Shown: piece after piece, positions 4,979 to 61,088 of the stretch
Layout of the letters: each line of letters opens with the position of its first letter
Numbering within the stretch: position 1 is the first letter of the stretch
Assembly (NCBI GenBank): GCA_028868375.1
Contig: JAGWUP010000002.1
Location: 193,015 to 257,014, forward strand
Direction: 5' to 3'
DNA from: Elusimicrobiota bacterium
Lineage (GTDB): Bacteria > Elusimicrobiota > Elusimicrobia > UBA1565 > UBA9628
DNA: 64,000 bases
Position numbers and translations under genes: made by a program
The notes under the pieces: model-generated
The model's database searches: none
Told to the model about the DNA's origin: nothing
Seen by the model: the letters and a program-made list of their open reading frames with translations, nothing else

Positions 4979-4998
4979 CCCCCGAGCCCAGGCGACCC
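4930..4998. repeat. Direct repeat copy 1: last ~69 bp of valS including the stop codon
   Basis: The sequence gacgagcgcgtcgagcgcctcagccggaccctggcgctgttgagctgacccccgagcccaggcgaccc recurs at 10188..10256 with 2 mismatches. Confidence 0.9.
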
Positions 4999-18618: not shown

Positions 18619-21213
18619 GGGCTGTAACGGGGTTGGCAGTCCCAGCTCTTGGCGAACGATGTCCTCGATGGCGGAACGCAGCTCGGGATTTTCCGCGGGC
18701 AGCAGGCGCTCCACGACCAGGGGATAGATCGCCTCGAGAAGCTCGCGGGAGGGATTGGCGATGAAATCCAGAGTCTGCTTGCGGCGCTCCTCCATCGGCA
18801 GCGGGGAGTCTGGTTTAAAGAAAGCTCCGAAGTCGCCGGCCGAGCGGCCGCGGCCGTCGGCGGTGACGAAGGCGTTCTCGCTATGGGCGTCTGTCATGTT
18901 GTCCCGGCTGCCGCTCCAGCCCGTCATGTGGGCCAGCATCATCGCCGCGGCGTTGCCGGCCAGGACGGTCGGCGCGGCCAGGTCCAGCGGCAAGGGCAGC
19001 CAGTCAACAAGTTTGCCGGTGTTTCTCAAGCGCTTGCCGTCCTCGTAGCGAAAGATCATCAGGCCCAGGGGATTGGATCTCGTAAAACGACGGAGGCGTC
19101 CGTAGAGGCGCAGAGTGCCCGTCCATTGCCCGAAAAAGAGGGGCTCGGGAGCCAGGCCGGGGCCCTCGCCCTGCGGGGCGTTTAGGAGCTCTTGGGCGAC
19201 TTCGAAGTGGGCCGGACTGATCCAGTCGCGGCCTTTCTCCTGGCCCGGCATCTTCAGCTCGACGGCGTAGCCGCCGGCGCCGGCCAATTGCATCCTGCGG
19301 AAGCTTTCGCTGACGGGATTGACCAGCAGCTTGCCGAGGGCGTATTGAAAGCCCTTGCGCTCGGACCAAGCCATCGTCGGCAGCGCGGAGGCGTTGGCGA
19401 GATTGTAGGGAACGGCCATGCGCAGGAAGCTCAGGGCGGTCAGGAAGACGGAGAGCCTGGCGCCGTGGCCCAAGATCAATGAGAGCTGGGGCAGTTGCCG
19501 CCACATTTGATCCTTCGCCCCGTGGCCCCAACGCTTCCGGCCCAGGGGTTTGAGCCCGCCGGAGCCGTTGGCCGAGGAGAGCAGGCGAGCAAGCCGTCCC
19601 CAGAGGGCGACCAGCGCCGAATTGACCCCCGCCCAATCCACTCCGAGGCTGACGGCCAGGCGCTTCAGCTCCTGCTCCGAGCCTTCCAGCACGATTCGCG
19701 CCAACCCGTCTAGGGCTTCGGAGCGCGCCTGCTCATCGACTTGCGGGACCATGGCCTGTAGCCGCAGCGACGGCAGCCAGATCTTGTGGATTTCCCCGGA
19801 TTGGCCAGGGACGGAATGGGCCAGATGGAGCCGGCCGGCCGGCTCCATGCCTAGGGCCACGGCCGGCTTGTCGCTGGCGAAGACCAGGCTCTTCTCCTCG
19901 CCGTCGCGGGGATCGACGAGCAACAATTTGTTGCCGGAAACGGCGATCAGCCTGCCGTCCGGGGAGAAGCCCAGCGGCCCGTAGCCGGACAGCGGCGCGG
20001 CCCTTTGGTAAATCCTCCGGCCGCTCTGTACGTCCCACAGGGAGAGAAGGCTCTTGCCGTTGTCATCGCTGGACAGCACCGCCAGGCGCCTGCCGTCGGC
20101 GGAGAAGACGGCATGGGTGGGCGACCACCAGTCGGAGCCATTTCTGTCAAACCCGGTTCTGAAAATCTGCCGGCCGTCCGCGTCATGGACGGCCAGGGTC
20201 TTCGAGTTCCAGTGGCTGGTGACGAGCGCGCGGCCGTCCGGGGAGATGGCCAGCGGGAAGCCGGGCAGGCTGCTTTGGCCCAGCAGTCTGCCGCCGGCGA
20301 GCTCCCAGGAGGCCAGGACGCTGTTGTCGTCGCTGTCGTAGGCGGCCAGCAGGCGGCCGTCGCCAGAAAAGCGCATGGCCATGGCGTCTTGAAAGCCCAT
20401 CACGCCCAACGTAGGCTCGGCAAGCCAGCGGATGGGGCCGCCGGGATTGTCGAGGTCGAGCAGCCCGACCTGGGAGGCCTCGTTGGACAGGGCCATCAGG
20501 ACGCCGTCCTCGCTGAACGCTCCGTTGCCGATCGCTGCCTCCTCGCCCGTCAGGTCGCGGAGAATCTTGTTCGACCTCGTGTCCCAGAGGGCGGTCCGTT
20601 CCTTGGACATCTCCAGCAGCAGCGAGCCGTCGGGCGAGAGGATGGTGCGCCCGCCGCCGCCGGACTTCGCGTCGATGAACGAGTCACTAGCTTCCCAGTG
20701 ATCCGCCAGCAGGGCGTCGAGCAGCGCGCCCTCGTGGGCCCGGCGCAGGTGGGCGAGGAAGGAGCGGATCAGGCGGGGCGCCTTGAGCGCCGATTGAGGG
20801 GCAAAGCCCAGGGCCCGCGCCTGCCCCCTGGTCAGCCGCGAGGCGGCGGCTCCGGACGTCAGCTCCCGGTGCAGAAGAAACTGGACCAGCTTGTCCTCGA
20901 CCCCGCGCCGCTGCAGGCGGGCGAATTTCTCCAGCTTCGCGTAGTCGCCGGGCTCGAGAGACGGGGCCCGGCTCAGAGTGATCCCCTGCTCCGCGATGGC
21001 GCCGGCGGCGGCGTCGAGATGGTAGCTCTGGACCTCGCTTAGGGCCGGCGGCAGGCTGGGGGCGACGGCCTCGGGCTGGGCCATCGCCTCCGGTTGGGCC
21101 AGCGCCGAGGACGGCGCCAGGCTTGCCAGAGCCAGGAAGCAGCAGAGAAGCAAGCGCGTCAGCACTGGAATATGATAGCGGCCGCTCAACGCGCGCGAGC
21201 GCCGGCTACTCAT
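18613..21213 (-). CDS. Secreted beta-propeller (WD40/TolB-like) repeat protein, 866 aa, with a C-terminal domain of unknown function
   Basis: Signal peptide (LLLCCFLALASLAPSSALA). Multiple SPDG/SxDG blade motifs (ILSPDGSLLL, AISPDGRALV, VFSADGRRLAV, GFSPDGRLIAV). The ~300-aa C-terminus has no recognisable motif. Confidence 0.6.
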   Translation of the reverse strand: MSSRRSRALSGRYHIPVLTRLLLCCFLALASLAPSSALAQPEAMAQPEAVAPSLPPALSEVQSYHLDAAAGAIAEQGITLSRAPSLEPGDYAKLEKFARLQRRGVEDKLVQFLLHRELTSGAAASRLTRGQARALGFAPQSALKAPRLIRSFLAHLRRAHEGALLDALLADHWEASDSFIDAKSGGGGRTILSPDGSLLLEMSKERTALWDTRSNKILRDLTGEEAAIGNGAFSEDGVLMALSNEASQVGLLDLDNPGGPIRWLAEPTLGVMGFQDAMAMRFSGDGRLLAAYDSDDNSVLASWELAGGRLLGQSSLPGFPLAISPDGRALVTSHWNSKTLAVHDADGRQIFRTGFDRNGSDWWSPTHAVFSADGRRLAVLSSDDNGKSLLSLWDVQSGRRIYQRAAPLSGYGPLGFSPDGRLIAVSGNKLLLVDPRDGEEKSLVFASDKPAVALGMEPAGRLHLAHSVPGQSGEIHKIWLPSLRLQAMVPQVDEQARSEALDGLARIVLEGSEQELKRLAVSLGVDWAGVNSALVALWGRLARLLSSANGSGGLKPLGRKRWGHGAKDQMWRQLPQLSLILGHGARLSVFLTALSFLRMAVPYNLANASALPTMAWSERKGFQYALGKLLVNPVSESFRRMQLAGAGGYAVELKMPGQEKGRDWISPAHFEVAQELLNAPQGEGPGLAPEPLFFGQWTGTLRLYGRLRRFTRSNPLGLMIFRYEDGKRLRNTGKLVDWLPLPLDLAAPTVLAGNAAAMMLAHMTGWSGSRDNMTDAHSENAFVTADGRGRSAGDFGAFFKPDSPLPMEERRKQTLDFIANPSRELLEAIYPLVVERLLPAENPELRSAIEDIVRQELGLPTPLQPE
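21178..21211. repeat. 34-bp perfect direct repeat, copy 2
   Basis: Identical to 18585..18618. It contains the TAG stop of the kinase gene and, in another frame, the first 11 codons (MSSRRSRALSG) of the beta-propeller gene. Confidence 0.9.
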
Positions 21214-23629: not shown

Positions 23630-24259
23630 CTAGGACTTCGGGGGCTTGGCGACGGAGCTCGGGCGGGGCAATTCGAAGGCGTCGCCGGTGCGCGCGTACC
23701 AGGAGCCCTCCATGCGGCCGATGGCCTTGAGGTCCTGGTGGCGCGGCTGGCCGCCGTTCCAGAGGGCGTCGGCGATCGACAGATGGACGACCTTGCCGAT
23801 CACCAGATTCCCGGCCAGGGGGCCTTCGCCGATGGTGACGACCCGCAGCAGTTGGCACTCCATCTGCGCCGGCGATTCCTTGACGCGGGGGGGCCTGACC
23901 TTGACGCTGGGCAGCGGGGTCAGCCCGACCTTCTCGAACTCGCTGACCCCGTAGGGGTAGTCGGCGGAGCTTTGGTTGATCGCCGCGGCGTTGGCCTCGG
24001 TGGCGAGGTTGACGACGAATTGCCCGGTGGCGCGCGCGTTGACCAGGCTGTCCTTCTCCCTGCCGTCCCTGTTGTTGACCGGCGCGAAGCAAACGCTCAT
24101 CGGCTTGGCGGTGATCCCGGTAAAAAAGGAGAAGGGGGCGAGATTAGGAACGCCGTCGGGCGAGATGGTCGACACCCAGGCGATCGGGCGCGGCACGATC
24201 AGCGAGATCATCACCGCGTAGCGCTCGCGCAGCTCCAGCGCCTCGGGGTCAAGCTCCAT
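23630..24259 (-). CDS. Flavin reductase-like (FMN-binding split-barrel) domain protein
   Basis: The N-terminal region (VMISLIVPRPIAWVSTISPDGVPNLAPFSFF) is the typical flavin reductase like-domain signature. Confidence 0.7.
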   Translation of the reverse strand: MELDPEALELRERYAVMISLIVPRPIAWVSTISPDGVPNLAPFSFFTGITAKPMSVCFAPVNNRDGREKDSLVNARATGQFVVNLATEANAAAINQSSADYPYGVSEFEKVGLTPLPSVKVRPPRVKESPAQMECQLLRVVTIGEGPLAGNLVIGKVVHLSIADALWNGGQPRHQDLKAIGRMEGSWYARTGDAFELPRPSSVAKPPKS

Positions 24260-25529
24260 GGCGCCTCTTGGACCAGGAGAGCGGATAGCCGCCGTCGGCG
24301 ATCTTGAGGCCCTGGCCGGTGATTTGCAGGCTCTCGAAGAAGGTGTCGAGCATCACCGCCAGCTCCCGGGACATCTTGCCGCGCGCCTTAAGCGAGCGCT
24401 TGGCGGCCTCGCCCTGCGGGCTGTGCGGCAGGCCGGAGGGATGGAAGGTGATCGAGCCCGGCTCGATGACGCCTCTGCGCGCGCCGTAGTTCGCGTTGGA
24501 GAAGAACATCACCTCGTCGCAGTCGACGTTCTGGTGGGCGTAGGGGGCCGGCACGTTCGCGGGATGCCAGCCCTCGATCTGCGGGCGGAAGGTGCAGACG
24601 GCGAAGCCGTTGCGCGGGGCCTCGCCCGACTGGAAGGTCTGGCGCGTCGGCGGGGCGGTGTGGATCTCGCGCGAGATCGAGTGCTGGTCGGCGCTGTCGA
24701 AGGAGAAGGGATAAAGCGCCCCCTGCCAGCCGGCCAGGTCGAAGGGGTGGTGGCCCAGGGTCAGCCGGGTGACCCTGCCGCCGCCGTGCTTGACGAGCAC
24801 GGTGAAGCGCCCGGCCTCATCGCGCGCCGGGGGCAGCTGCGGCAGACCGATCTCGGTCTCCACGACCGGCGCCATCAGCGTCGCCTGCCCCTGGGCGTTG
24901 AGGTAATGGGGGGCGAAATGGATCGGCTGCAGCGACTCCACGATCAGGAAGAAGGCCGGCCCCTTGGCAAGCCGCCAGCGCGTCGTCGTGCCCTTGGGCA
25001 CGAGCAGGTAGAGGCCGGGGCGGAAGGGCAGGACGCCGTACTCCGTCTCCAGGCTGCCCCGGCCCTGCTGGACGAACAAGAGCTCGTGGGCCTCGCCGTT
25101 GCGGAAGAACTCGCCGGCGGGCGTGGAGCGGTCGGGGCGAGAGACGGAAATCGTCGTCGCGGGGCCGGCCAGCAGCGGGCGGCGCGCGCGCCAGAAATCG
25201 CCGCCGGCGGCCAGCCTGGCCGTCCTCAGATGGAAGGGCTGCAGCGGCAACTCCTGGGTCGGCTCCGCTCGCAGGTCGAAATCGGCCAGCCGCGGCGGCG
25301 CCACCTGCTCGGTGGGATAGCGCCGCAGGTGCATCTTGCGCGAATAGGCCCCGGAGAAGCCGTAGACGCCGTGGATCTCCTCCAGCGCCAGCAGTCCCGG
25401 CTTGGCGTGGAACTCGGTGTGGGGGACCTTCGGCACCTTGCCGCGCGTCGCGATCACCGCCATCGCGGCAGTATAGCTATTTTGCCGGTACCTCAAGCTG
25501 CCTCCGGTCTGCCCCGGCTGTGCTGCCAT
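24249..25529 (-). CDS. hmgA: Homogentisate 1,2-dioxygenase
   Basis: Length of 426 aa. Conserved HGD cupin regions (HELLFVQQGRGSLETEYGVLPF; NGFAVCTFRPQIEGWHPA; DEVMFFSNANYG...ITFHPSGLPHSP). It is adjacent to fah. Confidence 0.85.
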   Translation of the reverse strand: MAAQPGQTGGSLRYRQNSYTAAMAVIATRGKVPKVPHTEFHAKPGLLALEEIHGVYGFSGAYSRKMHLRRYPTEQVAPPRLADFDLRAEPTQELPLQPFHLRTARLAAGGDFWRARRPLLAGPATTISVSRPDRSTPAGEFFRNGEAHELLFVQQGRGSLETEYGVLPFRPGLYLLVPKGTTTRWRLAKGPAFFLIVESLQPIHFAPHYLNAQGQATLMAPVVETEIGLPQLPPARDEAGRFTVLVKHGGGRVTRLTLGHHPFDLAGWQGALYPFSFDSADQHSISREIHTAPPTRQTFQSGEAPRNGFAVCTFRPQIEGWHPANVPAPYAHQNVDCDEVMFFSNANYGARRGVIEPGSITFHPSGLPHSPQGEAAKRSLKARGKMSRELAVMLDTFFESLQITGQGLKIADGGYPLSWSKRRHGA

Positions 25530-25950
25530 GATTTCGCCGGTGAAAAGCCGACACGGTCGGGGCTTCAGCTAAGAAGCGCTGAGGTGGGTGACGGCGAGGA
25601 ATGCGGCGAGCGAGCACTGAGGACCTGCGTCACGATAATATGGTTATTTTGGACGGACGATTTTGGAGCGAGCCGAGGAGTGAGGAGCGAGCATAGCGAT
25701 CGCTATGTGAGCGACGAACGACGAAGGCGCAGCCCAAAATCGTCCGTCCCCTTCAGGGCGACCCGATTCCGGTCGATTTCATCGTTGCTCCTCGGTCACA
25801 TGGCCTGCGGCCATGCTCCCTCCTCGCGTCTTGAAATCGCCACGGACTCGGGTCGCCAAAATGACCATATTATCGTGACGCAGGTCCTTTGGGGCGCAGC
25901 GAAGCCGCGTCTGGAGCCGTCAGGACCCGCCGCAGCGCTTCTTAGCTGAG
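25520..25950. mobile_element. MITE-like palindromic element, family copy A (about 430 bp), between the fah stop and the hmgA start
   Basis: Nested inverted repeats: cagctaagaagcgctg (25566-81) pairs with cagcgcttcttagctg (25932-47); ggacctgcgtcacgataatatggt (25621-44) pairs with accatattatcgtgacgcaggtcc (25864-87); ggacggacgattttgg pairs with ccaaaatcgtccgtcc. The centre reads gagcatagcgatcgctatgtgagcgacgaacgacg. Related copies lie at 31000-31465 and 29037-29330. Confidence 0.55.
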
Positions 25951-25952
25951 GA

Positions 25953-26966
25953 TCAGTGGGGCCCGGAGTAGAGCAGCCGCCGCTGGGCTTTCGGCGCGCC
26001 GACGACCTGGCGCAGGGTGCCCAGTCGCTCGACCGTCAGCTCCAGGACGTCGCCGGGCTTGACCCAGCGCTCGAGATCGAGGCCGCAGCCCTTGTAGTAG
26101 GTGCCGCTGCCCAAGAGGTCGCCGGGATAGACCGTCTCCTCCTGCGAGACGTGCGAGAGCATCAAGGGAAAGCTCCAGCGGCGGCCCGTGGAGCTGGACT
26201 CGCTCCAGGGCTCCCCGTTGACCTTCAGGGTCATCTTAAGCCCCTCCGGCTCGGGCAATTCGTCGGCGGTCAGAAGGTAAGGGCCAAGCCCCGTGGCGAA
26301 GTCCTTGCCCTTGGCCGGGCCCATCCGGCAGACCATCTCGCTCTTCTGGATGTCGCGCGCCGAAAAATCGTTCAAGATCGTGTAGCCGGCGATGTGGCGC
26401 GCCGCCTGCTCGACGGAGAGGTCCCTGCCCTTCTTGCCGACGACGCAGCCGATCTCGAACTCGAAGTCGAAGCGGCGCGTGTAGCTGGGCCAGGGGACGG
26501 TGTCGCCGGGGCCGTAGATCTCGCGGTGGTTTCCTTTATAATAGACCGGCTGGTCGTACCACTGCGGCGCCAGCGGCTCGCCCCGGCGCTTGGCGCCCTG
26601 CAGGGCGTGCTCCTCGAAGGCGAAGAAATCGCGCAACGCCCTCGGGCGCGGCAAGGGGGCCAAGAGGCGCGCCTCGTCTTCCTTGTAAACCAGCCGCTCC
26701 CCGCGACTTCCCGCTTCAAGCCTTCCCCGGCGGACGTCCTCCAGCGCCTCGCGCGCCGCCTCGAGGGCCTCGCTTCCACCGTCCAGGAAGGCCAGCATCT
26801 CCGCCGGAAGCAGGGCGTCGGCCAGGCGCCGGGGCGCGGCCTTGCCCTGGGCGGCCAGGCGGGCGGCGCAGGCGAAGTTGAGGTCGACCATCCCGCCTTC
26901 AAGAAGGGCGCCCAGGCGCTCGAAGGGTCCCAAGGGCGTGCTGACCTCGAAGGTGACCAGCTTCAT
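25953..26966 (-). CDS. Fumarylacetoacetate hydrolase (FAH) family protein
   Basis: The FAH-fold C-terminal domain shows conserved acidic/metal-binding stretches (FAFEEHAL, GNHREIYGPGD, FDFEFEIGCVVGKKGRD, GYTILNDFSARDIQ). Confidence 0.8.
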   Translation of the reverse strand: MKLVTFEVSTPLGPFERLGALLEGGMVDLNFACAARLAAQGKAAPRRLADALLPAEMLAFLDGGSEALEAAREALEDVRRGRLEAGSRGERLVYKEDEARLLAPLPRPRALRDFFAFEEHALQGAKRRGEPLAPQWYDQPVYYKGNHREIYGPGDTVPWPSYTRRFDFEFEIGCVVGKKGRDLSVEQAARHIAGYTILNDFSARDIQKSEMVCRMGPAKGKDFATGLGPYLLTADELPEPEGLKMTLKVNGEPWSESSSTGRRWSFPLMLSHVSQEETVYPGDLLGSGTYYKGCGLDLERWVKPGDVLELTVERLGTLRQVVGAPKAQRRLLYSGPH

Positions 26967-27013
26967 GCCCCGCGATTATAGAATTACTTGCGGGCCGCGG
27001 CCAGGCCGCTCTG

Positions 27014-27751
27014 TTGCAAAGGGAGGCGGTCATGGATTACGAGCGCCGGCGCTCGAGCAGCCTGGACAAGGCGCTGGCCTCCTTTCCGTTCTCGAGGCTG
27101 CCGGAGGGGGAGATCCGACGGCTTCGCTCGGCCTTGCGCCCGGAGCGCTTTGGCGCCGGCGAGACGATCTTTCGCGAGGGAGAGCCGGCGGGCGGCTTTT
27201 GGGCTGTGCTGGAGGGGACGGTCCGCATCGTCGGCTTGTGCGGCGGCATGCGCCCCGTCGCTCTCGAGCGCCTGGGGCCGGGGCAGCTCTTCGGCCTTTA
27301 TTGCCGCGCCGGCGGCGGCGGCGAGTATCCTTGCACGGCCCTGGCCGAGCGGGAGGTCCTGGCGGCCCGAGTGCCGGATTCCGCCTACCAGCGCTGGCTC
27401 GGCGCCTATCCGGAGTTCGCGCGCGGCATCGTCGCGGCCTGCGCCGGACGGCTGGCGCGCATGAGGCGAGCCGCCGTCTCCGGGCGGGAGGGGGTCGAGC
27501 CGCGGCTGGCGCGCGCCCTGCTCTTGCGCTCGCGCGCGGACGGAGCGGTGGTGCGCATGACCAGGCGGGAGCTGGCCGGCGAGGTGGGCAGCGCCGTCGA
27601 GACGGTTTTCCGGGTGCTGGCGCGCTGGCGCCGGCGGGGGTGGCTTGCGACCGGACGCGGCCAAGTGCTGATCAAGAAGCCGGAGAAGCTGGCCCACGCG
27701 GCATGCCGCTATGATCGAGGTCATGGCGGCTCTTCGGGGACTTGCCTATAG
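27014..27751 (+). CDS. Crp/Fnr-family transcriptional regulator (cNMP-binding domain plus C-terminal HTH)
   Basis: A cNMP-binding beta-roll (GETIFREGEPAGGFWAVLEGTVRI) and a C-terminal HTH (MTRRELAGEVGSAVETVFRVLARW). The true start may be the ATG at 27032 (MDYERRR). Confidence 0.7.
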   Translation: MQREAVMDYERRRSSSLDKALASFPFSRLPEGEIRRLRSALRPERFGAGETIFREGEPAGGFWAVLEGTVRIVGLCGGMRPVALERLGPGQLFGLYCRAGGGGEYPCTALAEREVLAARVPDSAYQRWLGAYPEFARGIVAACAGRLARMRRAAVSGREGVEPRLARALLLRSRADGAVVRMTRRELAGEVGSAVETVFRVLARWRRRGWLATGRGQVLIKKPEKLAHAACRYDRGHGGSSGTCL

Positions 27752-28826
27752 TGAAAAGATGGCGGAAGATGCGGCGGCGCCATGCCGGCAGCGCGGCCTC
27801 GACGTCCTCTTCGGCAGGGCCTTGGCCCAGGCCCCCGACGGTTTTTGCGTCTCGCGCTCCGGGGTCTTGATCTACGCCAATCGGGCGGCCCAGAGGCTGC
27901 TCGGCTCTCCCGCCGAGCGGCTTTACGGCGGGCGGCTTCGCGAGGCGTTGTGCGCGCGGCTGGACTCCTTGGAATGCGCCGGCGAATGCCCGCTGCAGGC
28001 AGGCGACGGCGAGCGTCACGCGACGGCGTCGCGCGGGAAAGCCCCTGGCGGCGCGCTTGGCCGCGCAGGCCGGCGGGCGCTCAAGGTGCGCTGCCTAAGC
28101 CTCGAGGCCGAGGGGGACGGGCCCGGCCAGAAGCCCTGGACCCTGACCCTCATCGAGGAGACGAGCAAGGATGCCGAGAGGGAGCGGCGCAAGCGGTTGT
28201 GGCGCGGCGCGATCGCCGTGGATCTGCGCTCTCCCCTGAGCGCCGTCGCCTCGGCCCTGCGCCTGGCCGGCTCGCGGGAAAGCGAGGCCGCTTGCCGGCG
28301 CCTCCTGGCCGCGCTGAGCTTTTATCTGGACATCGGCGCCCTGCGGGCCGGAGCGCTGCCCCTGCGCCCGGAGGCGGTCGATCTACTCTTGGCCGCGCGC
28401 CGCTGCGTCTTGGCTTGCTCCGCCTGCGCCGCGCAGAAGGGCGTCGAGATCGGGCTGTCGGGAGAAGCGGGGCTGTCGGCCAGGGCCGATTCCGGGCTGC
28501 TTGCGCGCGTGATCGGCGGCTTGCTCGACAACGCCATTCGCTTTGCGCCCGCGGCGGGGACGGTCCGCCTCTCGGCGGGCCCCGCGCCCGGCTCGCGCGT
28601 GGCCTTGCGGGTGATCAACGAGGGGCGCGGCATGCCCTCCGGGGAGCTGGCCCGCATCTTCGAGCCCTGCGAGCGGGTGCCGCCGGCCCGCGTCGAGCGC
28701 TGGCGCAGCACCGGCCTGGCGTTGACGTTCTGCCGCGAGGCGGTCGGCCGGATGGGCGGCGAGGTGCTCGTCGAGTCCACGCCCGGCAGCCGGACGGCGT
28801 TCACGGTGCTGCTGCCGGCGGCCTGA
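27711..28826 (+). CDS. Sensor histidine kinase (PAS-like N-terminal region, degenerate HisKA, HATPase_c)
   Basis: A PAS-like region (FCVSRSGVLIYANRAAQRLLG). HATPase_c N/G-box regions (LLDNAIRFAPAAGTVRL; INEGRGMPSGELARIFEP; STGLALTFCREAV). The start is uncertain; an alternative ATG at 27759 avoids overlap with the Crp gene. Confidence 0.6.
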   Translation: MIEVMAALRGLAYSEKMAEDAAAPCRQRGLDVLFGRALAQAPDGFCVSRSGVLIYANRAAQRLLGSPAERLYGGRLREALCARLDSLECAGECPLQAGDGERHATASRGKAPGGALGRAGRRALKVRCLSLEAEGDGPGQKPWTLTLIEETSKDAERERRKRLWRGAIAVDLRSPLSAVASALRLAGSRESEAACRRLLAALSFYLDIGALRAGALPLRPEAVDLLLAARRCVLACSACAAQKGVEIGLSGEAGLSARADSGLLARVIGGLLDNAIRFAPAAGTVRLSAGPAPGSRVALRVINEGRGMPSGELARIFEPCERVPPARVERWRSTGLALTFCREAVGRMGGEVLVESTPGSRTAFTVLLPAA

Positions 28827-28860
28827 GCCGGCCGCTTCGTTGCAACAGATTCAAGAGCCA

Positions 28861-29030
28861 TGAACCTGTGCGTGGAGTGCCGCTGGTGCGAGTTGAGCGA
28901 GGATAAGCGCGGGCGTCTGCGCTACGTCTGCCGGCGCGAGGATGGGCGGGCGTTGGGCTGGGACGTCATACGCAAGAAGGCTTGTCCGAGCTTCTCGCAT
29001 CAGCTTCCCTCGGCGGTCTGGGGAGCCTAG
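28861..29030 (+). CDS. Possible small Cys-rich protein (56 aa, C-x2-C ... C ... C)
   Basis: An unannotated short ORF reading MNLCVECRWCELSEDKRGRLRYVCRREDGRALGWDVIRKKACPSF... There is no homology assessment. Confidence 0.25.
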
Positions 29031-29036
29031 CGGCTC

Positions 29037-29330
29037 CTAGTGTAGTGAATCATAAATCCCTTTGCATTTGGAGGCCCAATCCCGAGACGATTTCCAGGAG
29101 CGACGACCGAGAATAGCCGCAGCTATTTGAGGGAGAAGCGACGCAGAAATGGGCCGGGATTGGGCCTCCCCTGACTCTGAAGTCTTGATTGGGGAGGGGC
29201 AGCGCCATTTCGCCCGCCTGGCTTCGTTGCTCGTCGCTTGCATAGCTTAGGCTATGCGCGCTCCTCGCGCCTCGCCAGGCGCCAAACTGGCGCTGCCAAA
29301 TGCAAAGGGATTTATGATTCACTACACTAG
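29037..29330. mobile_element. MITE-like element (294 bp) with perfect 35-bp terminal inverted repeats
   Basis: The TIR ctagtgtagtgaatcataaatccctttgcatttgg (29037-71) pairs with ccaaatgcaaagggatttatgattcactacactag (29296-29330). The interior shares the family core (cgttgctcgtcgcttgcatagcttaggctatgcgcgctcctcgc, compared with cgtcgttcgtcgctcgcata... in the other copies). Confidence 0.6.
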
Positions 29331-30967
29331 AGCGAGCGCGACAGGAGGATCAGGGCCGCGCCGGCGAGAAGGACCAGCCACCACCAGGAAGGCCGCGGCT
29401 TGGCGGCCAAACCGCGCAGCCACAGCCACCAGGCTTGCCAGCGCGGCTGGTCGCGGTTGAACCGCCCCGGCGGGGGAGGCGTGCCGTGCTCGACGGCGGC
29501 GGGCAGGGCCCGAACCTGCTTGGGCGACAGGCCCATCTGGGAAGCCAGCGCCATGACCTGCTGGCGCTCCGCCATCGTCAGCTCGCGCCCGCTCATGCCG
29601 AGCATCCGCGCCACTTTTTCCTCGACGGCGGACATCGCGGGCGAGGCGTTCTGCGGCAGTTGATCCAGGGCGTCGGCGATCTGGGGGCCATCCGTGGAGC
29701 CGTCGTTGGAGGCGTCCTTGAGCATCTTCTGGATGTCGGCCAGCTCCTTTTTTTCCTCGTCGGTCAGCTCGTCGGAGCCGTTGTCCTGCTCGCCGCCCTG
29801 TGAGGCCTGTCCCGACTGCGCCGAGCCCTGAGCGCCGTGCAATCCCCCCGGCGCCAGATCCGTTCCCCCGGAGTCCTCGCCGGGCTGCGGCGCCATGCCG
29901 GAGGCGGTTCCGGCCGCGCCCGAGACCGCCGCCCCCGAGTAGGCGCCTCCTGCTGCGGCCCGGCCGGCGGGGGTCGCTGCGCCGGAAGCGTAGCCGCCTC
30001 GGCCTGCGGCATAGCGCTTGGCGCCGCGGCCGGCCGGAGAATAGCCCGTTGCCGAGGATGTTCTTGCTCCTCCGGGCATGGAGCCGTGGCCGCCGGCGCG
30101 GCGGCTGCCGCCGTTAAGCGCCCGGAAGGCCGCCGCTCCCGCGTTGGGGCCGGCCAGATTGTCCTGCTTCAAGCCGAAGCCGCGCTTGGCCTGATCGGCC
30201 GCCTCTCCGCCGAGAGCGGCTCCCTCGCCTCCGCCGGCCGGATGGCCGCTGACGCTGTCTCCGCCGCCGCCGGAATCGGTGGAGCCGCCCCCGTCGCTCG
30301 AGCCTCCCTCGTCCGCCGAGCCGCCCGCATCGGAGGGGGCGCCGGAGCCTCCCGTCCTCCCTGCGGCCGGAGTTCCGCCGGGCGAGACGGTCCGGTTGGC
30401 GGCCGGGGCCTTGTCCTTGGCGGCCGGAGGGGGAGCGGTTTCCGGCGGCCCGTTTTGTTGGCGGTCTAGGTAGGCCCTGGCGGCGCGGAGATTCCCCAGG
30501 TTTCTGTTGGCGATGTCATTCAGGTCGCCTGCATTAAAATTTTTGGCGCCGACCAGGGCATCCACGATGTTTTTCCTCTCTAAGCTGTCGGGCGGCAACG
30601 GCTTGGGCAGGGCCTGGGCCAGGTTAGGATATTGCGTGGCCAAGAGTTGGTATGTCTTGTTGTCTTGCGCGATCTGCTTCGGGGTGAGCGGCTGGTCGAA
30701 TGCTGCCGGTGGCGCGGGCTCGCCCGCTAGCTCATGCAGGAGCAGGTTGGTGACGGCCAGGCGGCGGTAGGTCAGCTCGTCGCCTGTAAGTAGAACCTGG
30801 TTTCCATCGGCATCGGTCCGGCTCTCGTAGAGGCCGCTGTCGTACTGGGGCAGGAATTGCTTGATTTCCGCCAGGAGCTTCTGTTGGGTGTCCGTCTCCG
30901 CCGCATGGGCCGAGGCGCCCAGCAAGGCGACCAAAAGCAGCGCCGCGCGCATGAGGATCCGCGTCAC
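29327..30967 (-). CDS. Secreted low-complexity Gly/Ser/Ala-rich protein with a C-terminal hydrophobic anchor (546 aa)
   Basis: Signal peptide (MRAALLLVALLGASAHA), an ordered N-terminal ~190 aa, then a long GGS/GSA-rich tract and a C-terminal W-rich TM segment (WQAWWLWLRGLAAKPRPSWWWLVLLAGAALILL). Confidence 0.5.
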   Translation of the reverse strand: MTRILMRAALLLVALLGASAHAAETDTQQKLLAEIKQFLPQYDSGLYESRTDADGNQVLLTGDELTYRRLAVTNLLLHELAGEPAPPAAFDQPLTPKQIAQDNKTYQLLATQYPNLAQALPKPLPPDSLERKNIVDALVGAKNFNAGDLNDIANRNLGNLRAARAYLDRQQNGPPETAPPPAAKDKAPAANRTVSPGGTPAAGRTGGSGAPSDAGGSADEGGSSDGGGSTDSGGGGDSVSGHPAGGGEGAALGGEAADQAKRGFGLKQDNLAGPNAGAAAFRALNGGSRRAGGHGSMPGGARTSSATGYSPAGRGAKRYAAGRGGYASGAATPAGRAAAGGAYSGAAVSGAAGTASGMAPQPGEDSGGTDLAPGGLHGAQGSAQSGQASQGGEQDNGSDELTDEEKKELADIQKMLKDASNDGSTDGPQIADALDQLPQNASPAMSAVEEKVARMLGMSGRELTMAERQQVMALASQMGLSPKQVRALPAAVEHGTPPPPGRFNRDQPRWQAWWLWLRGLAAKPRPSWWWLVLLAGAALILLSRSL

Positions 30968-30999
30968 AAGTTGAGTGTAGCGGCCTGGCGGGGAAATTC

Positions 31000-31465
31000 A
31001 AGCCCCGTCCATCTTCCCGATCCTCGGCTAAGAAGCGCAGGCGGCGGGTCCTGATGGCTGCGGACGCGGCTTCGCTGCGCCCCCGTAGGACCTGTGACAC
31101 GATTATATAGACGATTTGGAGGCATGAGCTTGAGGCGATTTCGAGGCGCGAGGAGGGAGCATGGCGATCGCCATGTGACCGACGAGCAACGAAGAAATCG
31201 ACCAAGATCATGCCTCTGCCCTACGCCCGGGCGATTTTGGGCTGCGCCTGCGTCGTTCGTCGCTCGCATACCGCTGCGGGTATGCTCGCTCCTCGCTCCT
31301 TGGCTCGCTCCAAAATCGCCTCGGCCAAATCGTCTATATAATCGCGTCACAGGTCCTCAGTGCTCGCTCGCCGCGTTCCTCGCCATCACCCACCGCAGCG
31401 CTTCTTCGCTGAAGCTCTGGCCGCGTCGACTTTTCACCGGTGAGGCGAGATCATGGCAGCGCAAT
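31000..31465. mobile_element. MITE-like palindromic element, family copy B (inverted relative to copy A), carrying a duplicated hmgA 5' fragment at its right end
   Basis: The terminal repeat cggctaagaagcgc (31025-38) pairs with gcgcttcttcgctgaag (31398-31414). Inner repeat: ggacctgtgacacgattatatagacgatttgg pairs with ccaaatcgtctatataatcgcgtcacaggtcc. The centre reads gcatggcgatcgccatgtgaccgacgagcaacg. The right flank cttttcaccggtgaggcgagatcATGGCAGCGCAATCGGGGCAG resembles the hmgA start region (ATGGCAGCACAGCCGGGGCAG at 25529) and is followed by a stop after 11 codons. Confidence 0.55.
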
Positions 31466-31488
31466 CGGGGCAGATCGACGGCATTTAG
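31453..31488 (+). pseudogene. Duplicated hmgA start fragment (MAAQSGQIDGI*)
   Basis: The first 7 codons match the hmgA N-terminus MAAQPGQ at 18 of 21 nt, and ~25 nt of upstream sequence is also shared (cttttcaccgg...atcATGGCAGC). Confidence 0.5.
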
Positions 31489-31504
31489 GGCGTCTTAATC
31501 AATA

Positions 31505-31568
31505 AGTGACACACTTCGCTGGGACGATTTTGGAGCGAGCCAAGGTGCGGCGAGCGACGCAGGTCCTT
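31505..31568. repeat. Fragment of the same MITE-like family
   Basis: gacgattttggagcgagccaaggtgcggcgagcgacgcaggtcc resembles the inner arm of copy A (gacgattttggagcgagccgaggagtgaggagcgagc ... ggacctgcgtc). Confidence 0.3.
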
Positions 31569-32385
31569 AGAGGCAGGAGCGCGCGGCCAGATGCGTCGGG
31601 TTGAGGTTCTCGGAGGCGTTGATCGGAGACCAGTAGATGCTCCCGCCGCCGCCGTCGCCGGCCGAAAACCCCGCGGCGCCGCCTCCGTCGAAGAGCACCG
31701 CGTCGGTGGCGCCGAGCCGGCGCATGAGCGCCGCCATCCCGGCCAGGGTGGCCCCGCGCGGCCTGAGGATGTCCCCGCTCAGGATCGACTGGGCCGACTG
31801 CGGCGCGCTGACGATCAGCAATTGCTGGCGGCCGTCGACCGTCCGCAGTCCCACGGCGGTGCGCGCGGCGGGGCGCGAAAGCATGTCCGGAGAAAAGCTT
31901 TCTCCGGGAGTCGAGCCCCGCGGCAGGTTGTCGGCGCTAAGGTCCTTGCCGTCGAGCAGAAGAATCGCTCCGCCGCCCAGATAAAGATCCATCGTCTCGA
32001 TCGCCTCGTCGTCGCGCGCGATCGCCAGAGTGCCTTTGCCGCGCAGCCGTCCCAGCGCCCAACGCCGGCCCAGGTCGACGACCCGGCCGTCGCCGGGGCG
32101 GAGGACTCGGTAGCGGGGATGGTACTCTCTTCCGTCGGAGGCCAGCACGTCGCCCATGGGCTGTCCTTGCCCGAAATAGGTGCCGTTGACGACGACTGTT
32201 CCCAGGCCGCGCGCTCGCCAGAAGCGCATCGGCTCATAGGAGACGATCAAATTGTCGGAGGGACGCTCGATGACGGCGAGAGCGTAATCCACGCCCCTGT
32301 CGTAGGCCTTTTCCCAGCACCGTTGGGGGCCTATGTCCGCGCGCGCCGCCAGCGCCCACGCCGCCGCCGCCATCCACTCGATCAT
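31567..32385 (-). CDS. Hypothetical protein, possibly phosphodiester glycosidase (DUF2233/NAGPA-like) family
   Basis: NGTYFGQG ... GGGAILLLDGKDL ... DGRQQLLIVSAPQS ... AVLFDGGGAAGF resembles the NAGPA-domain pattern (NGGFF...GGPxLLxDG...DGGGS). The assignment is by pattern only. Confidence 0.4.
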   Translation of the reverse strand: MIEWMAAAAWALAARADIGPQRCWEKAYDRGVDYALAVIERPSDNLIVSYEPMRFWRARGLGTVVVNGTYFGQGQPMGDVLASDGREYHPRYRVLRPGDGRVVDLGRRWALGRLRGKGTLAIARDDEAIETMDLYLGGGAILLLDGKDLSADNLPRGSTPGESFSPDMLSRPAARTAVGLRTVDGRQQLLIVSAPQSAQSILSGDILRPRGATLAGMAALMRRLGATDAVLFDGGGAAGFSAGDGGGGSIYWSPINASENLNPTHLAARSCL

Positions 32386-40738: not shown

Positions 40739-42235
40739 GTGAGCGCGCGCCGCCGCCTGGCATTGCTCTGCGGCGCGGCCTTCCTCTATCTGCTTTGCCG
40801 GCACGCCTACTACGTCGGCTTCTTCAACGACGACGCCTTCTACATCATCGGGGCTCGCTCCCTGTTGAGCGGCCGCTACGCCGAGCTCAACGCCCCGCTG
40901 GCGCCTCCGCTGGTCAACTACCTGCCCGGCTTCTCGTTGCTGCTCTCTCCCGTGGCGGCCCTGGCCGGACGCGCCTTGTGGCCCTATCAAGCGGCGAGCG
41001 CGGCGCTGCTCTTGGCGGGGCTATGGTGGTTTTCCTCGCTCGCCTCGGCGCTCTGCCCCGAGGACGCTTGGGCCGCCCTGGCGCTGGCCGCCTTCACCCC
41101 GCTGGCCGTCAGCATGTCCTGGACCGTCCTGTCGGACGTGCCGATGCTGGCGGCGGCGATGGCCGCCTTGGCCTGGGCGCGGCGCCTCTGGCCGGAGGAG
41201 CGTCCCTCGCGCTGGCTGGGCTTGGCGGCCTTGGTCGGCTTTGCGGCGCTGCTGCGTCCCACCGGGGCGGCGCTGGCCCTTGCCTTCGCCCTGGCGCTGG
41301 CTTGCGAGCGGCGCTGGGCCTTGTCCGCCTTGAGCGCCTCCTGCGCCGCGGCTTGGCTGCTGCCGTTTCTAGCGCGCAACTACGCGCTGACCGGACATGC
41401 CCTGCTGTACGTCTCGGAGCTGGCCGCGCCGTACGCGGGCCATGGGCGCTGGAGCATTCTCGCGGGGACCGTCTTATTGAACCTCGCCTATTATCTCAGG
41501 CTGGTCTTCGAGACGATGCTCTTTCGCTGGCCCGTCGCCGCGGCCGCGGGCTCCCCGTTGACGGCGGCCACGGTCGGGCTGGGCTCGGTCGCCGCCGCGA
41601 CGGGCCTGAGCGCCGCGGGCTGGAAGGGGTGGGCCAAACTGCCGGCCCTGTTCTTGGTCCTGTTTTTGGCCGCCCATCTGGCCTGGAGCAAGCAGGCCGC
41701 GCGCTACCTGCTGCCGGTCCTGCCGCTGGCCTTCGCGTATTTTTTGCGCGGCGTCCGGGTTCTCGGCGCGCGCGCGGGCGCTTCCCGCGCGGCCGCGCCG
41801 GCCGCCGCCATCCTCGCCCTGCTCCTGATGCTGCCCACGGACCTGCGCGTGGCCGAGGCCTCCTGGAGGCGCGATTCTTCGGTGACGCGGCCGCCCGAGA
41901 GGACCATGGCCTGGGTCCGCGGCCATACCGCGCCCTCCGACGTCTTCGCCGTCGAGCTGGACGGGCGCTTCTATCTGCTGACGGGGCGGCGCGCGCTGCA
42001 TCTGCGCCGTCTCTCCGGTCCGCGGGCCTTCGCGCGCTGGCTGGCGTCTTCCGGCGCGCGCTACGTGGCGGTCTTTCCCGACGACTACGCCCTGGCCACC
42101 AAACGCGGCGACGCTTTCGACGATCCGCTGCCGGCCGCCGTGCTGCTGTCCTGGCTTTCCGATCCCGCGCGCTATCGGCTGGACTTCTCCGATCCGGCTG
42201 AGCGCTCGGCGATCTACGAGCGCCTCGGACGCTAG
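40739..42235 (+). CDS. Integral-membrane GT-C type glycosyltransferase (ArnT/PMT/GT39-83-like), putative
   Basis: Roughly 10-12 predicted TM helices, a YYVGFFNDDAFYI N-terminal loop with DD (a GT-C DxD-like loop) and a C-terminal soluble domain. Confidence 0.5.
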   Translation: MSARRRLALLCGAAFLYLLCRHAYYVGFFNDDAFYIIGARSLLSGRYAELNAPLAPPLVNYLPGFSLLLSPVAALAGRALWPYQAASAALLLAGLWWFSSLASALCPEDAWAALALAAFTPLAVSMSWTVLSDVPMLAAAMAALAWARRLWPEERPSRWLGLAALVGFAALLRPTGAALALAFALALACERRWALSALSASCAAAWLLPFLARNYALTGHALLYVSELAAPYAGHGRWSILAGTVLLNLAYYLRLVFETMLFRWPVAAAAGSPLTAATVGLGSVAAATGLSAAGWKGWAKLPALFLVLFLAAHLAWSKQAARYLLPVLPLAFAYFLRGVRVLGARAGASRAAAPAAAILALLLMLPTDLRVAEASWRRDSSVTRPPERTMAWVRGHTAPSDVFAVELDGRFYLLTGRRALHLRRLSGPRAFARWLASSGARYVAVFPDDYALATKRGDAFDDPLPAAVLLSWLSDPARYRLDFSDPAERSAIYERLGR

Positions 42236-42265
42236 CTGACGGCGCCTAACATCCGTCCGGGACGG

Positions 42266-42322
42266 CTCGTCGTTTATCGTCCGCCGGGCCCTCAGACGCC
42301 CCGTCAGACGATAAACGACGCG
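42266..42322. terminator. Bidirectional hairpin between convergent genes
   Basis: cgtcgtttatcgtc (42268-81) ... gacgataaacgacg (42309-22) form a 14-bp perfect inverted repeat with a GC-rich loop. It lies between the GT-C gene stop and the hybrid kinase stop. Confidence 0.45.
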
Positions 42323-42405
42323 CCGGTCTGTCCCGGTTCTGCTGTCACGGGTTCACCCGCCAGCGAAAAGTCGACGCCTTCCATGCGGCCGAGGATCGGG
42401 GCAGG

Positions 42406-43533
42406 CTAGATTGCTTGCGCGGTGCTCAGCGGCAGCGTGAAGTGGAAGCGCGAGCCCAGGCCTTGCTGGCTTTCGGCCCAGATGCGGCCGCCGTGCAGCT
42501 CGATCAAGCCCCGGCAGATCTCCAGGCCCAGGCCCAGGCCCTGATGGTCCTTGCGCGTCTCCGAGACCTGGTAGAAGCGCTCGAAGAGGTGCGGAAGGTC
42601 CTTGGCCGGTATGCCGCAGCCGGTGTCGGAGACGGTGAAGCAGACCGAGCCGTCCTGCTCCAGATCGCGCGCGGACAGCGTTATCCGCCCGCCGGCCGGC
42701 GTGAACTTCAGCGCGTTGCTGAAAAGGTTGGAGAGGACCTGCTGCACGCGCTGGGAATCGGCCAGGACGAGGGCGTCGGTGTCGCAGTCGAGACCCAGCT
42801 CGATCTTGCGGCGTCCGATCTCCAGGCGCGCGTTCTCTACGGCGGCATGGCAGAGCTTGGCCGCCGCCACCGGCTCCAGGCTCAGCTCGATCTTGTGGCC
42901 TTGCAGGCGGGCGGACTCGGAGAGCTCGTCGAGCAGGGAGTCGAGGCGCTCGGCGTTGCTGTGGATCGACTGGACGCTGCGGCGCACGTCCTCCGGCTTG
43001 CAGCGGTGGCCCTGATCGAGCAGAAAGGCGGAGTAGCCGTAGACCACGGCCAATGGGTTCTTGAGCTCGTGGGAAACGTTTTGAAGCATGCGGGAGCGGT
43101 GATGCAGCTGGTCTTGAAGCCGCTCCAGCTGGGAGGTCTTCTCGGCCAGCATCCGCGAGAGGCGGTAATGCTCCAGCGCGCGACGCGCCGCCGCCACCAG
43201 GGCCAGGCCCCGGCAGGGCTTGATCAAGTAGTCGTAGGCCCCGCCCTCGCGCACCGCCGCCAGCGCCGCCGCCTCGCAGCTCTGCCCGGCCAGCAGGATG
43301 CCGAGCGACCAGCGATCGAGGGAGCGCGCTTTTTCTAGGACGTCCAGCCCGGAGGCGGCCGGCAGGCGCAGGTCCGCCAGAACCACGGGAAAGCGCCCGG
43401 TGACCAGCTCGCGCGCCGCTTGCTCGGCGCTGCCGGCCGCGGAAGCCTCCAAGCCCGCTCCGCGCAGCGCGGCCGCGGCGGTCTTAAGGAACCGCTCGTC
43501 GTCGTCCACGATCAGGATCGTTCCGGCTTCCAT
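42406..43533 (-). CDS. Hybrid response-regulator receiver / histidine kinase (REC-HisKA-HATPase_c)
   Basis: REC domain (ILIVDDDERFL...VVLADLRLP...DYLIKP), HisKA H-box (SHELKNPLAVV) and HATPase N/G boxes (LSNLFSNALKFTPAGGRI; DTGCGIPAKDL; GLGLGLEICRGLIELHGGRIW). Confidence 0.75.
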   Translation of the reverse strand: MEAGTILIVDDDERFLKTAAAALRGAGLEASAAGSAEQAARELVTGRFPVVLADLRLPAASGLDVLEKARSLDRWSLGILLAGQSCEAAALAAVREGGAYDYLIKPCRGLALVAAARRALEHYRLSRMLAEKTSQLERLQDQLHHRSRMLQNVSHELKNPLAVVYGYSAFLLDQGHRCKPEDVRRSVQSIHSNAERLDSLLDELSESARLQGHKIELSLEPVAAAKLCHAAVENARLEIGRRKIELGLDCDTDALVLADSQRVQQVLSNLFSNALKFTPAGGRITLSARDLEQDGSVCFTVSDTGCGIPAKDLPHLFERFYQVSETRKDHQGLGLGLEICRGLIELHGGRIWAESQQGLGSRFHFTLPLSTAQAI

Positions 43534-60157: not shown

Positions 60158-60595
60158 ATGAGAGGACTCACCAGCAGGAAGCGCACTTCGGGCTTCACGC
60201 TCATCGAGTTGATGATCGTGGTTGCCATCATAGGTATCTTGGCGGCTATCGCCATACCGAAGTTCGCCAGCCTCATCCGCAAATCGAACGAGGGAGCGTC
60301 GAAGGGCAACCTCGGGTCCATCCGTGGAGCGTTGAGCATCTACTACGGAGACCTCGAGGGACAGTATCCCAGCGACATGACTTCCTTGACGATCAACGGC
60401 AAGTACCTGACCGCGATACCGAACGCGAAGGCTCCGAACTACCATCCGGACTCTTCCGCGGTCACGAACCAGACGACATCGGACGACGGCGGCGGCTGGT
60501 CCTACAACAACACGACCGGCGACTCCAACATGGGGACGGTGTGGGTCAACTGCACGCACACCGACACCAAGGGGAGCGTCTGGACGACGTACTAA
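60158..60595 (+). CDS. pilA: Type IV pilin (PilA-like) paralog 1
   Basis: Class III signal and N-methylation motif (RKRTSGFTLIELMIVVAIIGILAAIAIPKF) with a conserved E5. The C-terminus reads VWVNCTHTDTKGSVWTTY. Lower GC than the surroundings. Confidence 0.8.
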   Translation: MRGLTSRKRTSGFTLIELMIVVAIIGILAAIAIPKFASLIRKSNEGASKGNLGSIRGALSIYYGDLEGQYPSDMTSLTINGKYLTAIPNAKAPNYHPDSSAVTNQTTSDDGGGWSYNNTTGDSNMGTVWVNCTHTDTKGSVWTTY

Positions 60596-60626
60596 GCTAA
60601 TCGGGTCCTATCGGGCCCGGACGACC

Positions 60627-60658
60627 GGGGCCCCCTGGCGACAGGGGGCCCCTTTTTG
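60627..60658 (+). terminator. Rho-independent terminator between the two pilin genes
   Basis: ggggccccc-tggcgaca-gggggcccc followed by ttttt (60653-57). Confidence 0.6.
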
Positions 60659-60665
60659 GGCAGCG

Positions 60666-61088
60666 ATGGAAAGCCACGCCGAGGGGTTTACGCTGGTCGA
60701 ACTGATGATCGTCGTCGTGATCATCACGCTGCTGGCCACCATCGCCATCCCGAAGTTCGCCACCCTGGTGCGCAAGGCCAACGAGGGCGCCTCCAAGGGC
60801 AGCTTGGGGAGCATTCGCGGAGCGCTGTCCATCTACTACAGCGACATGGAGGGCGTCTATCCCAGCGACCTGACCTCCTTGACGATTGAGGCGAAATACA
60901 TGCAGGCGATCCCCCTGAGCAAGACTCCCTCCTATCATTGGGACAGCTCCAGCGTCGTCAACGGCGCCGTTTCCACGGACGCCGGAGGCTGGCTTTACGA
61001 CAACATCCAGGCAGACGCCGCCGACGGCAGCGTCTGGGTCAACTGCACCCATACCGACACCAAGGGCAGCGTTTGGACGAGCTATTGA
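60666..61088 (+). CDS. Type IV pilin paralog 2
   Basis: HAEGFTLVELMIVVVIITLLATIAIPKF at the N-terminus. The C-terminus (VWVNCTHTDTKGSVWTSY) is near-identical to paralog 1, and the middle has diverged. Confidence 0.8.
   Translation: MESHAEGFTLVELMIVVVIITLLATIAIPKFATLVRKANEGASKGSLGSIRGALSIYYSDMEGVYPSDLTSLTIEAKYMQAIPLSKTPSYHWDSSSVVNGAVSTDAGGWLYDNIQADAADGSVWVNCTHTDTKGSVWTSY

Follow-up and report, generated by a model that had tools for sequence, protein, structure and literature searches.

The question raised by this locus is whether the 294-bp stretch at 29037-29330, bounded by perfect inverted repeats, is a small mobile element, as a first-pass annotation made from the letters alone had proposed, and what its interior stands for. 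We call it element B, and we call the window the whole stretch of Elusimicrobiota DNA that was analysed (64,000 nucleotides). The features of element B and of its relatives in the same window are the following (TIR, terminal inverted repeat):

29037-29071, no strand: left TIR of element B, 35 bp, AT-rich; its outer ~15-26 nt are common to the copies on contigs L038 and L074 (see below)
29296-29330, no strand: right TIR of element B, exact reverse complement of the left TIR
29037-29040, no strand: left CTAG, which may be the tip of the repeat or a target duplicated as 4 bp or as the TA within CTAG
29327-29330, no strand: right CTAG, in which 29327-29329 (the first three bases) form the TAG stop of ORF 29327-30967(-)
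29070-29169, minus strand: module B1, degenerate copy; covariance model hit at 29052-29175(-), 70 bits; closing stem 29070-29084 / 29155-29169
29170-29191, no strand: linker between the modules, not conserved among elements A, B and C
29192-29315, plus strand: module B2, canonical copy, 102.9 bits; invariant core at 29224-29268 (TCGTTGCTCGTCGCTTGCATAGC-TTAG-GCTATGCGCGCTCCTCGC)
25620-25888, no strand: sister element A, 269 bp, with 33-bp TIRs (97%); modules at 25633-25755(-) and 25751-25875(+)
31087-31357, no strand: sister element C, inverted relative to A, 271 bp, with 33-bp TIRs (97%); modules at 31100-31223(-) and 31219-31343(+)
31500-31566, minus strand: fragment D, internally deleted, which keeps a portion of a left end, the beginning of a module and a right end of A type (...GACGCAGGTCC); its limits were taken from the sequence

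The repeats of element B are as perfect as the first-pass annotation had stated. All 35 positions of the arms 29037-29071 and 29296-29330 are complementary (100%), with 224 nt between them; the left arm reads CTAGTGTAGTGAATCATAAATCCCTTTGCATTTGG, the ends are of the CTAGTGTAGTGAATC type, and the 35-mer was found at just these two sites of the 64-kb window, a match appearing in 0 of 100 shuffles. The arms are also AT-richer than their surroundings, as had been noticed, with 37% G+C by hand count versus ~68% in the window. Both tips carry CTAG (29037-29040 and 29327-29330), and the caveat that had been attached to them was correct: because CTAG is palindromic, a duplication of TA, a duplication of CTAG and a mere tip of the repeat are inseparable in this copy. 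With 294 bp the element is below the ~600 bp limit for a MITE, and the ORFs contained in it are mechanical only. Two convergent genes flank it, a small Cys-rich ORF that ends at 29030 and ORF 29327-30967(-), which codes for a Gly/Ala/Ser-rich protein of 546 aa with a signal peptide and a C-terminal anchor. The stop of this Gly-rich gene does lie inside the right TIR, its TAG being the reverse complement of 29327-29329, within the terminal CTAG. A histidine kinase gene precedes the Cys-rich ORF and the Gly-rich membrane protein gene among the neighbours; in the protein collection it had no close relative, matching only itself. The context is one of chromosomal housekeeping genes, and on this ground a single-strand promoter or origin of a conjugative plasmid was discarded.

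Either strand of element B is predicted to fold into the 35-bp terminal stem plus two internal hairpins (-171 kcal/mol, z = -12.6), the interior consisting of two inverted copies of a hairpin module of ~100 nt. The long terminal stem had brought up a retron (msr/msd, with a1/a2 repeats) as a candidate, which was rejected given that there is no reverse transcriptase nearby and that target duplications are present. No promoter-like or terminator-like site was predicted inside element B, and therefore there is no sign of an RNA of its own.

A covariance model of the module found exactly six full modules in the window, two in each of the elements A, B and C, and also picked up a fragment at 31500-31586 (12 bits, E=0.12). 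A degenerate pattern detects the motif in the same three elements too, the exact 38-mer occurring once. Hence the family motif that the first-pass annotation saw in three elements was borne out by both methods, but not its description of the two sisters as larger palindromic elements, since A and C are of the same size as B. It also missed that the module in the interior is far better conserved than the terminal repeats. The right end of fragment D (...CAGGTCC) directly adjoins a TTA (31567-31569) that serves ORF 31567-32385(-) as its TAA stop.

Elements A and C are each located inside an inverted segmental duplication of ~455 bp (25502-25957 and 31017-31478, 88% identity) that spans the upstream region and the first ten codons of a dioxygenase-like gene (24249-25529). 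The duplicated gene start, at 31451, reads MAAQSGQIDGI* and then stops. The block between the duplication arms is 5.1 kb long and contains an FAA hydrolase, a Crp-type regulator, a PAS histidine kinase, the small Cys-rich ORF, element B and the Gly-rich protein; recombination between the arms could invert it. When the TIRs of A and C were compared, nine differences were counted by hand on one arm and seven were found mirrored on the other, therefore the arms co-evolve, whether through selection for pairing, templated correction of quasi-palindromes or conversion from other copies. An outer, imperfect inverted repeat of ~35 nt (…TCAGCTAAGAAGCGCTG-GG-GGGT…), at 25565-25600 and 25915-25952, encloses A, and a corresponding sequence encloses C. 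Between this outer repeat and A there are non-pairing purine-rich stretches (GCGGCGAGCGAGC and GCGCAGCGAAGCCGC) that resemble the arms of the module, and A may have been inserted into an older palindromic element.

The module has two outer stems, wholly different between copies, around a near-invariant core of ~50 nt. The core reads C-TCGTYGYTC-N-TCGSTYRCAT, next a 6-bp hairpin (CATRSC/GSYATG) whose loop of 3-6 nt has no conserved sequence, and then ATGCKCSCTCCTCRC-GCCT. Both arms of the core hold the same 9-mer, GCTC(G/C)TCGC, in direct orientation. Once folded, these arms pair at isolated positions only (G-C, C-G, a central G-C or C-G, G-C and C-G), and between the isolated pairs there are invariant T·C and C·T mismatches that on the other strand read 5'-GA-3'/3'-AG-5'. 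The latter is a stable tandem G·A arrangement; the purine-rich strand should form a continuous helix and the pyrimidine-rich strand open loops. As the loop varies in length between 3 and 6 nt and the stems covary, the family to which element B belongs is non-coding. Peptide coding, or start-stop mini-ORFs in the core, had been considered as well and were discarded, the codons after the conserved ATG not being conserved and the loop length being variable.

In an alignment of 31 diverse copies of the module 30 columns were invariant. Over 85 distinct copies, 92.6% of the cells expected to pair did so, versus 64.5% in shuffled alignments and 33.5-46.3% when the partners were slid, and 21 of the 23 pairs had changes on both sides. 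The isolated pairs of the core covary as well (CG/UA, GC/AU/CG and CG/GC/UA), including the central G-C/C-G (columns 47 and 81), and the mismatch columns are fixed in 82-85 of the 85 sequences. On the strand with the pyrimidine core G·T pairs outnumber A·C (36 vs 16), which points opposite to the tandem G·A argument, since that one favours the other strand. Covariation of the stems alone is no proof of function, as templated repair can keep quasi-palindromes complementary. The mismatches, in contrast, would be erased by neutral decay or by a templated "perfecting" of the palindrome. That they are retained across phyla, while the stems and the termini diverged, argues for a strong purifying selection on the folded form of the module core, mismatches included. 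Adjacent modules showed the same (-,+) arrangement in 18 of 18 pairs, so that on either strand the 5' module is in the purine form and the 3' module in the pyrimidine form; this fixed order is also expected if each end of the element bears a "repeat plus module" unit in a set orientation.

To see how far the module extends we scanned one genome per species (185,579 species) with the core pattern. It gave 72 sites in 70 loci, all in MAGs, carrying labels of at least six phyla and placed under quite different terminal repeats; none of the 70 loci comes from the source genome of the window. The labels include several Elusimicrobia, Myxococcales or "delta proteobacterium" bins, Thermoanaerobaculia, Vicinamibacteria, Longimicrobiales, Nitrospirota and "Ca. 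Obscuribacterium magneticum", and Elusimicrobia GWA2_69_24 alone accounts for more than 20 loci. Another genome rich in modules is MFD01476.bin.1.33, whose contigs reach Mb scale. With the covariance model 107 modules were recovered from the 497 kb of this 70-locus set, and the ~5.6 kb beyond the window contained no further one. Searches of RNA, plasmid, phage and viral databases gave no relative. Rfam had no match with E up to 1 across 25000-32000, and at gathering scores a tRNA was its sole match in the whole window. BLASTN of the element retrieved nothing from 72,556 plasmid records or 50,697 phage records, the core pattern had no match in the IMG/VR viral contigs, and six 15-mers of the core, in DNA and RNA forms, had none in a full-text literature search. 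We could not match the family of element B to any family described in the databases and literature searched.

In the other genomes each module is found within an element bounded by inverted repeats of 25-37 bp. Forms with one module, ~160 bp long (e.g. L001 at 7745-7905), come from Thermoanaerobaculia, Myxococcales, Longimicrobiales and others, and forms with two or more modules (260-385 bp) from Elusimicrobia. In Elusimicrobia GWA2_69_24 there are longer two-module versions of 382-385 bp (L007 at 7156-7539, L019, L020, L023 and L040) with extra G+C-rich hairpins between the modules (e.g. CCCTGCGGCG…CGCCGCAGGG), so the interior grows by the addition of hairpins. Two classes of termini were distinguished, a GGG type (ends such as GGGCTCGCAATGAAATAAG...) and a CTAG type (CTAGTG...). 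Among the elements with termini beginning GGG/GGA, 17 of 30 are flanked left and right by an identical triplet, TTA or TAA in every case, and a further 9 of the 30 show TTA or TAA at a single side. As it matches within each copy but differs from copy to copy, the triplet is a true 3-bp target duplication. For the CTAG-type termini, the class of element B, the arrangement CTAG-TG...CA-CTAG was found in 10 of 12. The two kinds have the interior in common and also, by our own reading, a layout in which about nine bases separate G(G/T)(G/A) from an AAT(A/T)A-like box, which is followed by TTT(C/G)G.

Copies with the termini of element B itself were found on two contigs. One of them, L038 (Elusimicrobiota MAG JBDREN010000182.1), has a complete element at ~6095-6412 with 33 of the 35 positions of the left arm identical to element B, CTAG before this arm, CCAG at the right flank and an interior 79-85% identical, and a second copy, of which only the right end is present (1-128), beside different genes. 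The other, L074 (metagenome contig Ga0116202_10001918, of low G+C), was the single hit in metagenomes and contains a 230-bp element (395-624) with a left arm identical at 29 of 30 nt and CTAG on both sides, but with an interior unrelated to that of element B and without the module. This interior is made of palindromic units of the GTTCGTCCTGAG…CTCAGGAC type, which we take to be of the sort translated in many annotations as spurious "PFVVSLSNHE"-like peptides. The flanking genes are different for every copy with these termini, and the exact repeat of element B is present in one copy within the ~70 kb of the source genome that was read. Ends and interior are thus separable, one set of ends being found with different interiors and one interior under different ends. 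Near-identical termini with CTAG flanks at unrelated sites, together with the TTA/TAA duplications in the sister families, support the identification of element B as a MITE that had been made in the first pass. In ~16 of 54 elements (~30%) a boundary lies no more than 4 nt away from the stop of a flanking ORF, in some on both sides, and the orientation of one-module elements relative to the upstream gene is random (16 vs 14), as expected for a transposon.

We consider element B to be a non-autonomous cut-and-paste DNA transposon (MITE), with a probability of about 0.8. A DDE transposase supplied in trans would bind the outer ~15-26 bp of each terminal repeat, excise the element and insert it through staggered cuts in a target that contains A/T, CTAG here and TTA/TAA in the sister families. 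At 60-70% G+C, TTA, TAA and CTAG are rare outside stop codons, so insertions would pile up at gene ends, and, as the target is duplicated, the stop codon would be restored after the insertion. Duplication of targets at stops would explain the overlaps at 29327-29329, where the Gly-rich gene ends in the right repeat, and at 31567-31569. About the interior we can only be tentative. The module might be a functional structured nucleic acid (a single-stranded DNA or RNA bound by a protein, an enhancer or regulator of transposition, or an undescribed class of ribozyme or non-coding RNA) which MITEs with different repeats would have carried into at least six phyla, under a selection stronger than that on the ends. 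The role that we favour, though loosely and as less likely than not, is that of a putative cis-acting site in transposition or its control. The folded module would then be the binding site of a protein acting in these processes, presented either in single-stranded form (DNA or RNA) or in hairpin DNA that the palindrome extrudes, and its purine-rich strand would give a helix stiffened by tandem G·A pairs.

The first-pass annotation had also pointed to other copies and to a transposase with matching TIRs as a check. The copies do exist (two on L038 and one on L074), but a transposase with matching ends was found neither in the window nor in the ~5.6 kb beyond it nor in the 497 kb of related loci, by a crude tblastn with an approximate IS5 transposase query. 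Neither was there an autonomous copy, that is, a long-range pair of inverted repeats with these termini, in any locus. The nature of the enzyme can be approached from the target. The target duplicated by IS5 is Py-T-A-Pu (YTAR), in most cases CTAG (PMC5493358). In Harbinger, whose superfamily also includes the bacterial IS5 family, the duplications are of 3 bp for canonical elements and of 0-3 bp for related ones (PMC12730594). The cognate enzyme is most likely of the IS5 / PIF-Harbinger kind, which is the most economical choice because one superfamily covers both the 3-bp (TNA/TWA) and the 4-bp duplications, here TTA/TAA and CTAG. IS630 inserts at TA with a preference for 5'-CTAG-3', according to the mention of Tenzen & Ohtsubo 1991 in PMC2170065, and an enzyme of this type, duplicating TA inside CTAG, is an alternative for the element B copy. 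The C-TA-G found at both tips of element B fits a duplication of TA only; the 3-bp duplications of the sister families that share its interior do not.

The extreme stability of the predicted fold (-171 kcal/mol, z = -12.6) might also point to a structured non-coding RNA as the key unit, be it a small RNA gene or a site in the 3'-UTR that acts in cis on the stabilisation or processing of the mRNA, in which case the terminal stem would be a part of the fold and mobility secondary or absent. Variable helices around conserved unpaired or non-canonical positions are typical of functional RNAs, and the many copies just after stop codons would be co-transcribed. However, the TTA/TAA duplications and the presence of repeat-bounded copies in unrelated places indicate mobility, and L074 has the same terminal repeat with a wholly different interior, so the terminal repeat works independently of the module. 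The lack of orientation bias relative to the upstream gene among one-module elements (16 vs 14), of promoter-like or terminator-like sites and of any Rfam match also speaks against an RNA, and we consider this explanation unlikely. An RNA role is compatible with a MITE, as the module can be its RNA cargo.

The pairing of two inverted hairpin modules into a larger hairpin recalls REPINs and raises another alternative, namely that these are REPIN/BIME-like doublets or some other single-stranded DNA element moved, with no DDE transposase, by a HUH enzyme (RAYT or IS200/IS605-type) that reads the imperfect hairpin. The conserved mismatches beside the small hairpin resemble the imperfect palindromes read by Y1 transposases, the GCTC-type repeats of the module presumably resemble Rep-binding elements, and the shared (-,+) arrangement of 18/18 adjacent pairs would fit too. 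Elements mobilised by HUH enzymes lack target duplications and long terminal inverted repeats, but here matched TTA/TAA triplets were found in 17/30 elements, together with repeats of 25-37 bp, and the termini of L074 move without the module. No recurrent neighbouring protein family (transposase, RAYT, RT or TnpB) appeared among the 584 ORFs of the 70 loci, which also counts against such an enzyme, and we regard this alternative as very improbable. That the palindrome arose by chance or from a faulty assembly seems to us next to impossible. Assembly is difficult here, as shown by short-read contigs of three runs that end inside the repeat at 29064, but up to the repeat three independent Logan assemblies agree with the window (0 mismatches), an NCBI MAG contig of 294 kb has the flanking histidine kinase gene, 0/100 shuffles matched and homologous elements are present in many other assemblies.

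Taken as a MITE, element B can be compared with several known systems. Those of the IS5 / PIF-Harbinger group (Tourist-like in eukaryotes) are also short and non-coding with TIRs of tens of bp, and share the 3-bp TTA/TAA duplication of the sister families or the CTAG site of element B; many termini here begin with GG, GA or GT followed by an A/T-rich box, as in that group. They differ in that the interior here is not the remnant of a deleted IS but a module far better conserved than the TIRs, and in that one module is found under very different TIRs in several phyla. MITEs of the IS630 / Tc1-mariner type, such as Nezha of cyanobacteria, are similarly small and intergenic, with inverted repeats and TA inside CTAG, but they duplicate TA only, while sister families with the same interior here duplicate 3 bp; plasmid and phage records, besides, showed no similarity in sequence to element B. 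Correia elements, which duplicate TA as well, are intergenic like ERIC, BOX and RUP; all of these fold into long hairpins and are frequently co-transcribed, being placed at gene ends. The conservation of ERIC across genera is unusually high, and the modules that make up BOX vary in number. The sequences of all these are unrelated to ours and belong to cultured bacteria, in contrast to the uncultured high-G+C lineages found here, in which conservation spans phyla and is concentrated in a ~50-nt core with invariant mismatches. A general review of the small repeats of bacteria is available (PMC2229807). REPINs and BIMEs, mobilised by RAYTs, have in common with our elements the doublets of inverted hairpin units forming a larger hairpin and the many copies per genome, but they lack the signature of TIRs plus target duplication, their units are of 20-40 nt, and no RAYT association was seen here.

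The interiors of MITEs are usually regarded as disposable. Here the interior is the most conserved part, while the ends to which the transposase would bind have diverged beyond recognition. The module is near-identical in MAGs labelled as Elusimicrobia, Myxococcota, Acidobacteriota, Gemmatimonadota, Nitrospirota and a Melainabacteria-like lineage. This reversal of the roles of interior and ends suggests that a small transposon depends on, or delivers, a folded nucleic-acid signal, and with the module there is a defined sequence on which the requirements of non-autonomous elements, apart from their ends, can be tested. For element B itself the practical message is modest, that it is most probably a genuine MITE and not a regulatory site of the host. 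For the annotation of high-G+C genomes from metagenomes a rule can be drawn, that such insertions are to be looked for in TTA, TAA and CTAG, often stop codons, where they break short-read assemblies.

Elements A and B do fragment the k-mer assemblies of this organism. The contigs L071-L073 (SRR32006840, SRR32006849 and SRR32006850), from three independent assemblies, share an end point at 29064, within the left repeat of B, and one of the three begins at 25882, within the right repeat of A, the other listed positions being 26296 and 26311. Contig ends inside repeats were considered as a sign of many copies, an explanation that was discarded, since it takes no more than a perfect inverted repeat of 35 bp to break a k=31 graph.

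Other repeats were observed along the window. A perfect direct repeat of 34 bp (GCGGCCGCTCAACGCGCGCGAGCGCCGGCTACTC), at 18585-18618 and 21178-21211, brackets almost exactly an ORF for an 866-aa beta-propeller protein (18613-21213). Another direct repeat, of 69 bp (97%), at 4930-4998 and 10188-10256, marks the 3' ends of two large ORFs that follow one another (2297-4978 and 5082-10187) and covers the stop codon and the first downstream bases. The second of these ORFs and the following one, 10331-17812, are giant (1701 and 2493 aa); across 10331-17812 no ORF reaches the third-position G+C of 0.80 that served as the threshold for calling genes, so this value is lower there than in the neighbour genes. 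At 60190-61080 two tandem units of ~490 bp, 73-74% identical, correspond to the paralogous small ORFs 60158-60595 and 60666-61088. Finally, a palindrome unrelated to the module is found at 42263-42325, with arms of 31 nt (84%) separated by 1 nt and an A/T-containing centre (CGTTTATCG / CGATAAACG); ORFs 40739-42235(+) and 42406-43533(-) converge on it, and it is possibly a terminator for both directions.
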